Virus record (IMG/VR): IMGVR_UViG_2778261179_000003
Direction: 5' to 3' (one strand)
DNA length: 4,964 nucleotides
Source: a virus
Lineage: Duplodnaviria; Heunggongvirae; Uroviricota; Caudoviricetes
Of this stretch, positions 1 through 3,897 are shown piece after piece (positions within the stretch are counted from its first letter, which is position 1; the number at the start of each line of letters is the position of its first letter). Position numbers and translations under genes: made by a program. The notes below the pieces were generated by a model that saw only the letters and a program-made list of their open reading frames with translations, did not search any database and was not told the origin of the DNA.

Positions 1-71
1 CCGTTCATTTTACGGATTGCTTTCGTCGCGTCGCTGATAACGAGAATATCGTCTTTAAGGTCGCGGTCTGA
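1..71 (-). other. Predicted start of a C-terminal intramolecular chaperone / self-cleaving peptidase S74-type domain of the tail fibre (continues beyond the window)
   Basis: In the stf frame, codons at 71..54 read S-D-R-D-L-K followed by DDILVISDATKAIRKMN. This gives a Ser and a Lys five residues apart inside an SDxxLKxxI-type motif, which matches my recollection of the catalytic Ser-Lys dyad signature at the start of endosialidase-chaperone (S74) domains in phage tail fibres and tailspikes. Recognition is from memory only. Confidence 0.45.
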
Positions 72-3000
72 TGACTGATTCAGCGTTGTGCAATTAATAG
101 CGCCATTTACATCAAACAACTGGCCTGCTGATGTTTTTTGCGCATAAAACAGATACGCAGCAGACGTTCCAACCTCAAAAACGTTTTGTCGATCACTTGA
201 TCCCCATACTTTTGCGGCAAATGATAGTTCTGTATTACCTAAGTTCTGTAAAATAAAACGATTGCCAGTCCCTGTTTGTTTTGTAAGGGTTAAATCAACA
301 GTTGAGTTAACCTCATCCTTGTTGATAGTGAGCGCCTGCGCTTTAGCCCCGTTAACAGCACCTGTTTTGAGTTGAACCGCGCCGTCATTACCATTTAGCA
401 GTATCTCAGCTCCGCTAAAGAAATTTTTTAGCGACAGCATCTTACTTACGCCGACTGATGAACCCAACGCCCACGCGAGAGAATTACCGGTGCTATCAAA
501 CCCACGTACAAAGCAATCCATTTTGCTATAGTCTGACGTGCTTCCAAGGACATCAATTCGCCCTCCGCCAGATTTTACCGGGTTAGATGTGGTTAATGAC
601 CTGACAGCAAGATCGGTAGATGAATTGAGATCGTCTACTGTTAATAGTCGTTTCCATCCCTTATCAACCCCAGCCTCAAAGCTTCTTGCCCAAAATTTGG
701 AGTTGCGACCGGCGAATTGTGTGACGTAATTACCGCTAAATTGAGCATGGAACCCGCCAACAACCATTGTTCCGTCAGGACCGCCTGCGCTCCCTGCTAT
801 TGGCTTAAACTTATTTACATTCTCTGTATGTTGAGTGCTCCAGTTTTGCCCTGTGTGAACAACCAATCCCTGATAAGAACTGAAGGTACCATCAAGGTTA
901 AAATTAAAGAACTTGCTGTTCCCTGAATTATTTATGTCCCTGACAACAATTTCACCAGAAGCGTTAGCGGCCCTTAGTTCAGTTTGATCGACAACCGGAC
1001 CGCCTTCGGATTGTAATCTTTGAGAAACAAATGTTCTGTTTGAAACTTCCGTACCATACGCGGTGAAAGATTGTGTTGCTTTAATCTGACCATTGTTTAC
1101 AAATATAGGAATAGTGACGGTAAAATTTTTGTCAAAACTCAGGCCATTTGTTAATGCAATCCTTTCTGACACCCCTTGTCTGAACGGAAGGTTGCTGTAG
1201 AAGCCATGTTCACCGCCAGTGAAGTCAAGAACATTTTTAACAAAGTTCTTGTCGTTATCCTCCGTTGACGTTGATACACCAAACTTATATCTAACCCCGT
1301 TGTCACCAATTACGTAGTCTTCTGTTGGTACAGTAACTCGCGCTTTAAAGCCTGTTTGCAATAATATCGGGAAAGCGGATTTATGGATATAGAACGCTAC
1401 ATATTGCTGGTAATCTTTCTTCGATACTTTAAGGCAAAGTATCCCTAGCTCATTTTTGTCATAGGCAACAAATGAGCCGCAAGCTATGCCACCGCATCGA
1501 AAATATCCACTAAATGTATTGCTATTCATCGGGTCTGATGCTGAACGCCCTGCTGTTTTTATATCAATAGGACATGCCAGGTTGCCGTAACCTTCCATTG
1601 CGGATGTGTCTATTATGACAGGGTAGTATTTGCCATCCTCTGCACCTTCTGGCGCTTGCAAGGTTATAGCTTTGGTTAATCCACCCTCAGGGATTTGCAA
1701 ATTAGTTTTGGCGTCATTAAGGCTATTTGCGCCAGTGCCACCCTGGGCTAAACCTAACGGAGACCATTTTCCAGAAGAAGAATTATAAACCCCCCAATTC
1801 CCGTTTGTATGGATTTCAAGGAAACGATCACCAGTTGGGCCATATACGCGAGTTGTTGATTCATTTTGACTAAAGCGGCTTACTTCATCCTTTCTTGCGT
1901 GACGGGTCCATTGCGGGCCAGAACTTTGGCTGTAAATGTACGAATACAATGATTTTGTATCTGAACCAACAAATAGACCGGAATATCTTTTTGTTGACAC
2001 TTCTGATCTAACTATATAACCAGAAATAAGATTATCCCCGGCACTAGACGCTACTGATGGATAACCTTTCGCTGAGATGTAAATCCTGACAAATCCAATA
2101 TAACCTGATGGCTCAACAGAGATATCAGTGCAGGTCATGGCAACTTCACCAAGACCAATATTGTTACCAACAACGGATTGTGCCTGGTTGCGATAATTAA
2201 GTGCGTCCGCCGCAGATTTCGCCGCGTTTGTTTCACTGGATTTAGCATTAGTTTCGCTGGCTTTAGCGTTTGTTTCGCTGCTCTTTGCTGCTGCCTCGCT
2301 ATTTTTCGCGTTGGTTTCTGATTTTTTGGCTGCTGTCGCGGAGTTTGCCGATGCAGTTTGTGAGTCTGCTGCCGCCTGTGCGCTGTTATCCGCATTCGTC
2401 TCAGACGTTTTTGCGGCCTTCGCGGAATTTCCTGCCGCCGTTGCCGAGGAAGCGGCATTACTGGCGCTCGAGGCTGCGCTCGTTTCTGATGATTTCGCTG
2501 CCTCTTTTGAGGCCGCCGCATCCCGGGCTGAGGTGGCAGCTTCTGACGCTTTCGTGGTCGCGGTGGATGCAGAAGTGGCTGCAGATTTTTGTGACGCTGC
2601 AGCATTCGTTTCTGACGTTTTCGCCGCACCGGCACTGGTAGCCGCCGCGCTTTTTGAGGACTCTGCAGCGGCAGCACTTTTTGATGCTTCAGTAGCCTTT
2701 GTTGATGCCGTTCCTGCGCTGGAAGACGCTGACTGAGCCGACGTCGCGGCCTGCCCGGCTGATGTGCTGGCTGCACGTGCTGAGCCTGCAGCATCAGTCG
2801 CATGGGTTGCCGCCTCACGGGCTGATGTGCCGGCATCGCTGGCTGACTTCTTCGCGGCTGCCGTGTTCTGTTCCACTGCGGACGCGTTACGCGCCACCTC
2901 TTCCACCATCAGTTCAAAGCGGCGCAGTGCCTCCGGACGGGCATCATCCTCCGTCATGGCACCGAGAAAATCATTCAGCGTACCCGGTTGTGAGTCTTCA

Positions 3001-3233
3001 TACACGGTGATGATCCCGGCATGCGATGGCGGGAAGCCTTCCACCAACAGAATAACGCTGTACTGACCGTACTCAACGTCCATGCTGTAACGCCCGGCTT
3101 CATCCGGATTTTCAGATGCCACCGTGTTCACCACCACCGTGGTGCTGTTACGTTTTGCTTTCAGCTGGATTGTGCAGTTCTGTACCGGTTTACCTGCACC
3201 GTCTTTCAGTACACCTGAAATCTTTACTGCCAT
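1..3233 (-). CDS. stf: Side tail fibre protein (Stf-like), 5' end complete, 3' end truncated by the window edge; more than 1070 codons in the window
   Basis: Minus-strand ATG at 3233..3231, preceded by an in-frame stop at 3275..3273 and a G-rich stretch (GTGGGGTG, complement of 3237..3244) just upstream. Hand translation begins MAVKISGVLKDGAGKPVQNCTIQLKAKRNSTTVVVNTVASENPDEAGRYSMDVEYGQYSV..., which I recognise as the conserved N-terminus of lambda-family side tail fibres. Frame checked by codon at 3233, about 2100-2160 (IGLGEVAMTCTDISVEPSGY), about 1680-1760 (PLGLAQGGTGANSLNDAKTNLQIPEGG), about 1503-1535 (DPMNSNTFSGY) and 3-80 (NQSSDRDLKDDILVISDATKAIRKMN); no stop met in this frame. Absent from the ORF track only because there is no stop within the window. 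Positions 1-2 are a partial codon. Confidence 0.88.
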   Translation of the reverse strand, partial: MAVKISGVLKDGAGKPVQNCTIQLKAKRNSTTVVVNTVASENPDEAGRYSMDVEYGQYSVILLVEGFPPSHAGIITVYEDSQPGTLNDFLGAMTEDDARPEALRRFELMVEEVARNASAVEQNTAAAKKSASDAGTSAREAATHATDAAGSARAASTSAGQAATSAQSASSSAGTASTKATEASKSAAAAESSKSAAATSAGAAKTSETNAAASQKSAATSASTATTKASEAATSARDAAASKEAAKSSETSAASSASNAASSATAAGNSAKAAKTSETNADNSAQAAADSQTASANSATAAKKSETNAKNSEAAAKSSETNAKASETNAKSSETNAAKSAADALNYRNQAQSVVGNNIGLGEVAMTCTDISVEPSGYIGFVRIYISAKGYPSVASSAGDNLISGYIVRSEVSTKRYSGLFVGSDTKSLYSYIYSQSSGPQWTRHARKDEVSRFSQNESTTRVYGPTGDRFLEIHTNGNWGVYNSSSGKWSPLGLAQGGTGANSLNDAKTNLQIPEGGLTKAITLQAPEGAEDGKYYPVIIDTSAMEGYGNLACPIDIKTAGRSASDPMNSNTFSGYFRCGGIACGSFVAYDKNELGILCLKVSKKDYQQYVAFYIHKSAFPILLQTGFKARVTVPTEDYVIGDNGVRYKFGVSTSTEDNDKNFVKNVLDFTGGEHGFYSNLPFRQGVSERIALTNGLSFDKNFTVTIPIFVNNGQIKATQSFTAYGTEVSNRTFVSQRLQSEGGPVVDQTELRAANASGEIVVRDINNSGNSKFFNFNLDGTFSSYQGLVVHTGQNWSTQHTENVNKFKPIAGSAGGPDGTMVVGGFHAQFSGNYVTQFAGRNSKFWARSFEAGVDKGWKRLLTVDDLNSSTDLAVRSLTTSNPVKSGGGRIDVLGSTSDYSKMDCFVRGFDSTGNSLAWALGSSVGVSKMLSLKNFFSGAEILLNGNDGAVQLKTGAVNGAKAQALTINKDEVNSTVDLTLTKQTGTGNRFILQNLGNTELSFAAKVWGSSDRQNVFEVGTSAAYLFYAQKTSAGQLFDVNGAINCTTLNQSSDRDLKDDILVISDATKAIRKMN
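2200..2890 (-). repeat. Low-complexity, G+C-rich Ala/Ser/Thr/Lys/Glu/Asn-rich coding region within stf (predicted fibre shaft)
   Basis: Hand translation of the stf frame here is dominated by motifs such as AAKTSETNA, SAATSASTATTKASEAATSA and KSSETNAKASETNAKSSETNAAKS. The GCN-rich composition also generates the long spurious ORFs seen in other frames and on the plus strand in this interval. Confidence 0.75.
2226..2288 (-). repeat. Three tandem imperfect 21-nt repeats, in frame with stf, encoding heptads AKSSETN / AKASETN / AKSSETN
   Basis: Plus strand: gtttgtttcactggatttagc (2226..2246), attagtttcgctggctttagc (2247..2267), gtttgtttcgctgctctttgc (2268..2288). The reverse complement of each unit translates in the stf frame to a 7-residue unit. 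Confidence 0.7.
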
Positions 3234-3244
3234 ATTCACCCCAC

Positions 3245-3271
3245 AAAAAAGCCCGCCTGAACCGGCGGGCT
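3245..3271 (-). terminator. Rho-independent terminator downstream of lom, immediately upstream of the stf start
   Basis: Plus-strand GCCCGCC (3251..3257), 6-nt loop, GGCGGGC (3264..3270), a perfect inverted repeat; on the minus-strand transcript the hairpin is followed directly by a U6 tract (complement of A-run 3245..3250). About 27 nt downstream of the lom stop. Confidence 0.6.
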
Positions 3272-3297
3272 GTCATAACACTGTGTTACCTGGCTAA

Positions 3298-3897
3298 TCA
3301 GAACTTATAACCGACACCCACGATGAAACCGTCAGTGCGCCAGTCGCCACTGCCGGAGCCTTCATAAGCAATATCAATGGCCACGGATTCGGTCGGGTTA
3401 AACTGCACGCCAGCCCCCCACGCCAGAGACGTGTTGCTGCGGCGACCGTCATCACTTCCGGTCAGCACTTCGTGCGTTTTCCCCTTGTTGTCAGTTACGC
3501 GGAGATAATCCCCGGAGAAAGTCGAAATACGGCTGTAAGCCACACCCGCCATCGCATACGCGCTGAACCATTCATTCACGCGCACAGACGGCCCCGCCAT
3601 CACGCTGAACCAGCGGTTACGCACGGAATCTTCATGCCAGCGGGTATCGCTGTAATGAGTCAGCTGGCGATTCTTGTCTTCTGCATAGCTGAATGACGTC
3701 ACCATCCCCAGCGTGTCCGTAAACTCATAACGGTATTTCACGTTAATCCCGTTAAGATCATCGCTGCCGGGAACGTTCGTCGAGGCATGAAGATACCCCG
3801 CGCTCAGCGAGGACTGATGTTCAGACGCCCATGCAGGCGCACCGGATACGACCAGACAGATGGCTGCGGACAAAATGGCTGCACAAACTTTACGCAT
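3298..3897 (-). CDS. lom: Lom outer-membrane protein (Ail/Lom/OmpX family 8-stranded beta-barrel), prophage lysogenic-conversion (moron) gene
   Basis: 199-aa ORF from the track: MRKVCAAILSAAICLVVSGAPAWASEHQSSLSAGYLHASTNVPGSDDLNGINVKYRYEFTD...GFIVGVGYKF. Near-identical along its length to lambda Lom as I recall it. N-terminal signal peptide with AWA-SE cleavage-type site; C-terminal aromatic residue (F) typical of outer-membrane beta-barrels. Shine-Dalgarno-like GAGAGG (complement of 3903..3908) 5 nt upstream of the ATG. Confidence 0.93.
   Translation of the reverse strand: MRKVCAAILSAAICLVVSGAPAWASEHQSSLSAGYLHASTNVPGSDDLNGINVKYRYEFTDTLGMVTSFSYAEDKNRQLTHYSDTRWHEDSVRNRWFSVMAGPSVRVNEWFSAYAMAGVAYSRISTFSGDYLRVTDNKGKTHEVLTGSDDGRRSNTSLAWGAGVQFNPTESVAIDIAYEGSGSGDWRTDGFIVGVGYKF

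Follow-up and report, generated by a model that had tools for sequence, protein, structure and literature searches.

The codons for SDRDLKDDI at 71..45, on the minus strand of the 4,964-nucleotide stretch of viral DNA analyzed here (the window), very probably encode the start (nine residues) of a peptidase S74 intramolecular chaperone that is fused C-terminally to the side tail fiber protein (Stf) and that, by homology, would cleave itself off; the mechanism is taken from the endosialidase, T5 pb1 and S16 gp37. A previous sequence-only reading had proposed that the motif marks such a chaperone at the end of the fiber, and the proposal is borne out by the match to PF13884, the alignment of the catalytic dyad and the predicted fold in near-identical relatives. 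The architecture is already known: it is named in RefSeq, its domain belongs to a large, well-characterized family, and nothing in it is conceptually new.

A side tail fiber gene at the window edge

The window is the J-lom-stf end of a lambda-like (mEp460-type) prophage of Escherichia coli, and the ORF list and the translation place the end of J, lom and stf in this order on the minus strand (Table 1). The full-length match to PF08400 at the N terminus of the last of these proteins identifies its gene as a side tail fiber gene of the lambda type. The ATG of stf is found at 3233..3231, within a single long open frame (3272..3), and minus-strand translation gives 1077 complete and unbroken codons before the frame leaves the window at position 1. 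Against the phrog_6578 profile ('tail fiber protein') Stf scored 1236 bits with a match that stops at profile position 1102 of 1210, so that about 108 profile positions fall beyond the window and the protein is cut by its edge. Full-length relatives of Stf have 1200-1204 amino acids.

Table 1. Position of the genes, domains and predicted sites discussed in the text (window coordinates, except for the last line).
Feature	Coordinates	Strand	Basis
J (tail-tip host-specificity protein), C-terminal 331 codons	3971..4963	-	translation; annotation of relatives
lom (Ail/Lom outer-membrane protein, 199 aa), upstream of stf	3298..3897	-	ORF list; annotation of relatives
stf (side tail fiber gene)	1..3233	-	six-frame translation; Pfam phage_tail_N; phrog_6578
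phage_tail_N domain (PF08400) of Stf, residues 1-134	2832..3233	-	237.7 bits, E 4e-71, profile positions 1-134 of 134
Distal fiber module, also present in lateral tail fibers of lytic phages	46..1157	-	megablast, protein identity
Last ~57 predicted mature residues (~998-1054), fiber repeat motif	72..242	-	A2 profile match to T4 gp34; coordinates derived from the alignment
Predicted scissile bond Ser1054 (74..72) / Ser1055 (71..69), Ser1055 being the predicted nucleophile	69..74	-	alignments with T5 pb1 and S16 gp37
Lys1060, five residues past the Ser and predicted to be the general base of the Ser/Lys dyad	54..56	-	alignment, conservation
Predicted start of the S74 domain; ~121 more codons past the window	1..71	-	sub-threshold Pfam match; 27 loci; PF13884; predicted fold
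tfa remnant, last ~40 codons, directly after stf	L001:6616-6747 (E. coli Q5; counterpart beyond window position 1)

Some other characteristics of this region were apparent. Between lom and stf, at 3250-3271 of the minus strand and directly upstream of the stf start codon, there is a GC-rich hairpin followed by a run of T that resembles a terminator, and the annotation of mEp460 gives a rho-independent terminator there. Behind the N-terminal domain, Stf residues ~135-375 (2109-2831, minus strand) form a long low-complexity stretch rich in Ala, Ser, Thr and Lys with repeats of the SETNAK type, inside which a 21-base tandem repeat is found at 2230-2280. Several long ORFs that the same stretch produces in other frames or on the complementary strand are spurious, for example 2135..2836 (minus) and 2270-3066 (plus).

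Near the edge the translation of stf reads ...GAINCTTLNQSSDRDLKDDILVISDATKAIRKMN, and then the window ends. Minus-strand translation placed SDRDLKDDI in the stf frame and at exactly the codons that had been reported for it, the Ser being residue 1055 and the Lys residue 1060 counted from the initial Met. Both the spacing of Ser and Lys and the residues around them had been taken as a signature of the S74 domain, and only the second of these elements stood up to a chance estimate based on 2000 shuffles of the Stf protein. The bare S-x4-K spacing is uninformative since it occurs 13 times in Stf, a protein rich in Ala, Ser and Lys, with 7.8 occurrences expected from the shuffles. The more specific SD-x3-K is found once in Stf and at least once in 30% of the shuffles, SDR-x2-K is present in 1.25% of them, and the extended pattern SDR-x-[LIVM]-K-x2-I in none (0/2000). 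The Pfam model Peptidase_S74, searched against the 66 C-terminal residues of the window, aligned profile positions 1-24 of 58 with residues 44-66 (23 residues), with a score of 12.3 bits (E 0.22) that lies below the cut-off of 22. The motif is real and correctly placed; by itself, within the window, it suggests the domain, and its weight comes from the extension of the gene in the relatives.

The C terminus of the fiber in close relatives

The last 71 bases of the window recur with two mismatches at most in 27 fetched loci, belonging to E. coli prophages, IMG/VR contigs and phage mEp460, and the match is exact in 24 of them. An end of the ORF close to the edge, one of the outcomes that had been singled out for checking, was not observed in these near-identical relatives: the distance from the Ser to the stop was exactly 144 codons at all 27 loci. 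Over its last 1200 bases the window has 99.6% identity to E. coli strain Q5 and 98.8% to phage mEp460, both of which have the last 71 bases identical, and coverage of this 1200-base query reaches 80% or more in at least 104 complete E. coli genomes.

A second check, the search for an S74 match in the extension, was positive. PF13884 (Peptidase_S74, 'chaperone of endosialidase'), with a gathering cut-off of 22 bits, scored 48.1 and 48.6 bits on two full-length relatives (1200 and 1202 aa) and 49.7 bits on the 144-residue tail alone, and in these relatives position 1 of the profile is the Ser of the motif. The C-terminal location and the length of 144 residues from Ser to stop, seen in the relatives beyond the end of the window, fit what is expected of S74 domains (~100-150 residues). 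At each of the ten loci that encode an identical Lom, Stf carries both PF08400 and PF13884, and in E. coli chromosomes, at least 104 complete genomes among them, RefSeq gives the gene the name 'prophage tail fiber N-terminal domain and S74 family endopeptidase-containing protein'. The domain belongs to a large family, for which tblastn found 526 phage records and which spans 3981 clusters at 50% identity; in the full-length relatives listed from these clusters the match generally ends at the C terminus of the protein or within a few residues of it. An NCBIfam search of one full-length Stf relative gave no family match. The S74 identity is established for the gene family, and for the genome studied here we infer the body of the domain from the relatives that are identical over the last 71 bases.

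These data bear on the possibility that the motif is a chance match, or else a truncated or pseudogenised remnant whose ORF stops or breaks in the source genome just past the edge. The few residues that are visible, their sub-threshold Pfam score and the frequency of SD-x3-K among the shuffled proteins would agree with such a reading, as would the facts that a contig break may lie at the edge of the window and that many of the related database entries are 'partial' proteins cut within stf. We consider it highly improbable, given that the full 144-codon domain was present at all 27 loci with the 71-base tail, that the phrog_6578 match stops as truncation by the window predicts, that the extended motif never appeared among the shuffles and that all the upstream codons are intact.

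The closest counterparts of the gene are the Stf of mEp460 (JQ182728, AFM76057.1) and RefSeq proteins such as WP_353074708.1, which represent the same gene in the same J-lom-stf context, have last 1200 bases 98.8-99.6% identical to those of the window (the last 71 identical) and share the phage_tail_N and S74 domains. In comparison with these full-length relatives, the window leaves the last ~121 codons of stf outside and has a different mosaic middle part, with a best match over the whole window of 96.8%, while others match in two separate pieces. The literature matches listed for mEp460 included no work on its fiber.

A match to the whole window was not found among the fetched loci, the best megablast match to E. 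coli genomes and phages having the 96.8% identity mentioned above, and none of the ten loci with an identical Lom contains it entire. A 57-base pattern covering two window-specific SNPs had no exact counterpart in 26 IMG/VR loci and was found in 0 species-representative genomes. As a whole the window appears to be absent from the collections searched and to be a mosaic of known pieces. Along J, lom and the 5' part of stf its relatives are 97-99.6% identical, up to a point between ~2149 and ~1897, varying with the relative, where the alignment stops; most of them realign only at ~1750 or lower, with 87-94% identity, leaving a break in the middle of stf (~1750-2150, minus strand).

The structure of the domain was predicted with AlphaFold2 from a relative (P0094) that is 100% identical to the last 60 residues of the window and has 121 more, using an alignment with 52 diverse homologues. 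The model has a mean pLDDT of 91.2 and a pTM of 0.72, and in it residues 89-118 form a beta-hairpin and residues 120-180 a helix. In a Foldseek search of the PDB its only matches at E 0.0016 or better were 7dc3 (MyRF ICA domain, E 4.5e-5) and 3gw6 (endoNF chaperone, E 2e-4), the next one having an E of 0.55. On the basis of this model, the fold characteristic of S74 domains is present, with an alpha/beta body, a beta-hairpin 'tentacle' and a C-terminal coiled-coil helix, and the confident prediction matches the solved structures of intramolecular chaperones (MyRF ICA, GA-1, T5 pb1 and endoNF). A previous AlphaFold2 model, built from a shallow alignment of close relatives, had a mean pLDDT of 66, with values <50 across the N terminus of the chaperone; its Foldseek search retrieved T4 gp34 for the fiber part and 3gw6 at E 0.3, which is uninformative for the chaperone. 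Using phmmer, the 144-residue domain alone gave only weak matches to PDB sequences (coiled-coil, MyRF and S16).

The predicted cleavage site and the proposed maturation of the fiber

The Ser, Asp and Lys of the SDxxxK motif are invariant in the 42 close relatives compared. Among 52 diverse homologues the Lys is always present, the Asp is found in 51 and the Ser also in 51, the remaining sequence having Cys, and this position is preceded by Thr in 23 sequences and by Ser in 14. The sequence with Cys is the distant S74 homologue P0208, in which the nucleophilic Ser is replaced (CDRDEK) and the Lys is kept; judging from its sequence, this protein could represent a variant of the domain that cleaves itself with a Cys nucleophile.

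Ser and Lys are described as the catalytic dyad of the endosialidase chaperones (PMC3742443). In T5 pb1 the bond Thr1263-Ser1264 is cut after the trimer has folded, the mutation S1264A blocks processing, and only the processed fiber competes for the receptor (PMC4690869). For S16 gp37 the published autocleavage site is DLNVS^SDRRIKK (PMC7917993). Ser1055 and Lys1060 of Stf align with Ser1264 and Lys1269 of T5 pb1, and the Stf sequence TLNQS^SDRDLKD closely resembles the S16 site. The positions of these two sites lead to a predicted cut of Stf between Ser1054 and Ser1055. The end of the mature fiber had been put at about residue 1054 from the motif alone, a figure that is numerically consistent with a Ser at 1055 and agrees with the sites of T5 pb1 and S16 gp37.

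Among proteins of solved structure, the distal long tail fiber gp37 of S16 (6F45) is the best match by sequence (E 7e-5 with a single sequence, 2.8e-7 with a profile), and its cleavage context LNVS^SDRRIKKDI is nearly identical to LNQS^SDRDLKDDI of Stf. The two systems differ in that Salmonella phage S16 is a T4-like myovirus in which the surface uncovered by the release of the chaperone serves to dock another protein, the adhesin gp38, and nothing resembling a gp38 gene is found after stf in the relatives. K1F endoNF (3GW6) and the eukaryotic MyRF ICA (7DC3) have sequence identities to Stf of 12-24% and different clients, a tailspike sialidase in the first case and a membrane-bound transcription factor in the second, whereas that of the domain described here would be a lambdoid side tail fiber.

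The similarity to T5 pb1 is more distant, with ~26% identity over the last ~200 residues and an hhalign probability of 21.7% over 42 columns. Compared with pb1, Stf has six additional residues (CTTLNQ) just before the site and a longer C-terminal helix. The residues that assist cleavage in pb1, Arg1250, which comes from the neighboring chain, stabilizes the oxyanion and senses folding, and Asp1239, are not visibly conserved and fall on Thr in Stf, in an alignment that is unreliable at 26% identity; in the same unreliable alignment, Lys1033 of Stf adjoins the column of Arg1250. Homology to the 'bullet' of pb1 (residues 970-1263) was not found in the tip of Stf: hhalign aligned just the 42 columns around the cleavage motif, and a PDB profile search did not return 4UW7 or 4UW8 and hit T4 gp34 with the last ~57 mature residues. 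A bullet domain of the T5 pb1 type is not claimed for the Stf tip, given this marginal hhalign result; the tip is homologous to the fibers of slur09 and FritzHoffmann, not to that of T5.

The lack of visible conservation of the helper residues, the insertion before the site and the marginal similarity to T5 pb1 would all fit a domain that is S74-like and stays uncleaved, either remaining permanently on the fiber to cap it or to serve for docking, or needing another factor for its release. We regard this as improbable. The Ser and the Lys are almost universally kept in the diverse homologues and invariant in the close ones, the site is closely similar to one for which autocleavage has been reported, and a permanently capped fiber would probably be nonfunctional, because the uncleaved form of the T5 fiber cannot compete for the receptor.

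Under the preferred reading, that of a self-cleaving chaperone, the ~144-residue domain would consist of a short helix/strand body, a tentacle made of a long beta-hairpin and, at its C terminus, a long helix building a trimeric coiled coil. The domain would trimerize through this helix while the hairpins embrace the fiber tip, bringing the three Stf chains into register and templating the folding of the tip. Once the trimer is correctly folded, Lys1060 would activate Ser1055 and the predicted bond would be cut in each chain. The three chaperone chains, of about 16 kDa each, would then be released as a trimer, and the mature fiber, with Ser1054 as its last residue, would have its receptor-binding tip uncovered; a separate Tfa chaperone would be unnecessary.

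Probable replacement of tfa and exchange of the distal fiber module

The Stf of phage lambda has the same PF08400 attachment domain and its gene the same place after J and lom, and the relatives of the window have a remnant of a lambda-type tfa. The lambda fiber, however, lacks an S74 domain and uses Tfa as a separate protein, whereas here there is a distal part of the self-cleaving type with its chaperone, and tfa is reduced in the relatives to its last ~40 codons. The remnant is an ORF of 39-43 codons located downstream of stf, corresponds to positions 91-131 of 131 of the Caudo_TAP profile, is flagged by RefSeq as a tail fiber assembly pseudogene missing its N terminus, and has 89% identity to the final ~110 bases of the lambda gene (lambda 22426-22535). 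It is followed directly by DinI and the integrase in the relatives, and is missing from the gene calls of some of them (L005, L006, L008 and L010). A tfa-like gene after stf had also been listed among the things to look for; apart from this fragment, no intact tail fiber assembly gene (Caudo_TAP, about 190 aa) was found directly downstream of stf in the relatives.

Since only the 3' scar of tfa is kept in the relatives, the ancestral stf-3'/tfa module would have been replaced by a distal module of fiber plus chaperone such as those of the lateral tail fibers of T5-like phages and Nonagvirus. The remnant has the appearance of a right-hand scar from the recombination in which the 3' end of stf and most of tfa gave way to the self-chaperoning distal module. 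We infer that Stf is independent of Tfa. The opposite could be argued from the strong Caudo_TAP match of the small ORF directly downstream, and from the E. coli genomes themselves, which usually have several lambdoid prophages bearing an intact tfa and which contain a median of 2 places matching the window DNA; the fiber would then still depend on Tfa, provided by the remnant or in trans by another prophage, and the S74 domain would be an accessory. This has very little probability in our view: the remnant covers just the end of the profile, is a pseudogene for RefSeq and is not even called at several of the loci, S74 chaperones suffice for folding in the characterized cases, and the FritzHoffmann and slur09 fibers combine a homologous tip with an S74 domain and have no assembly gene annotated alongside. 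Three readings were considered and rejected: that the motif arose by chance, that the ORF is truncated, and that a functional Tfa is encoded downstream.

The DNA of the distal module has 87.0% identity by megablast to the lateral tail fiber gene of Nonagvirus FritzHoffmann and 78.3% to that of Tequintavirus slur09; over the last ~300 amino acids the protein identities are 74% and 67%, respectively. Both of these fibers carry PF13884. At the sequence level, the similarity indicates a relatively recent exchange of the distal module between temperate and virulent phages.

At the end of the predicted mature fiber, the final ~57 residues (VWGSSDRQNVFEVGTSAAYLFYAQKTS...VNGAIN) match the proximal long tail fiber gp34 of T4 (4uxe, 5nxf and 9x3r, E ~3e-9); in the A2 profile the match covers positions 297-353 and ends at ...LNQS. 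T4 gp34 is absent from the S74 chaperone matches found here. Among the alleles of E. coli there is a break in similarity at the predicted cleavage site S^SDRDLK (window 1-305, alignment A2), the first 100 residues of the chaperone being 84-91% identical and the 78 residues upstream 28-50%. This pattern is consistent with a chaperone that behaves as a conserved cassette joined to divergent tips. More tentatively, and with somewhat less than even confidence, the S74 chaperone and the tfa scar may together provide a conserved 3' recombination arm by which lambdoid prophages exchange entire receptor-binding tips, both among themselves and with the lytic T5-like phages and Nonagvirus. If this were true, the tfa remnant would record a one-time switch from a two-gene system (stf plus tfa) to a one-gene, self-chaperoning system.

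For the biology of these prophages, the results place Stf in the self-chaperoning, predicted self-cleaving class of fibers and set the probable end of the mature protein at Ser1054. In practical terms, expression of the fiber tip for work on host range or receptors should include the C-terminal domain rather than co-expression of Tfa.
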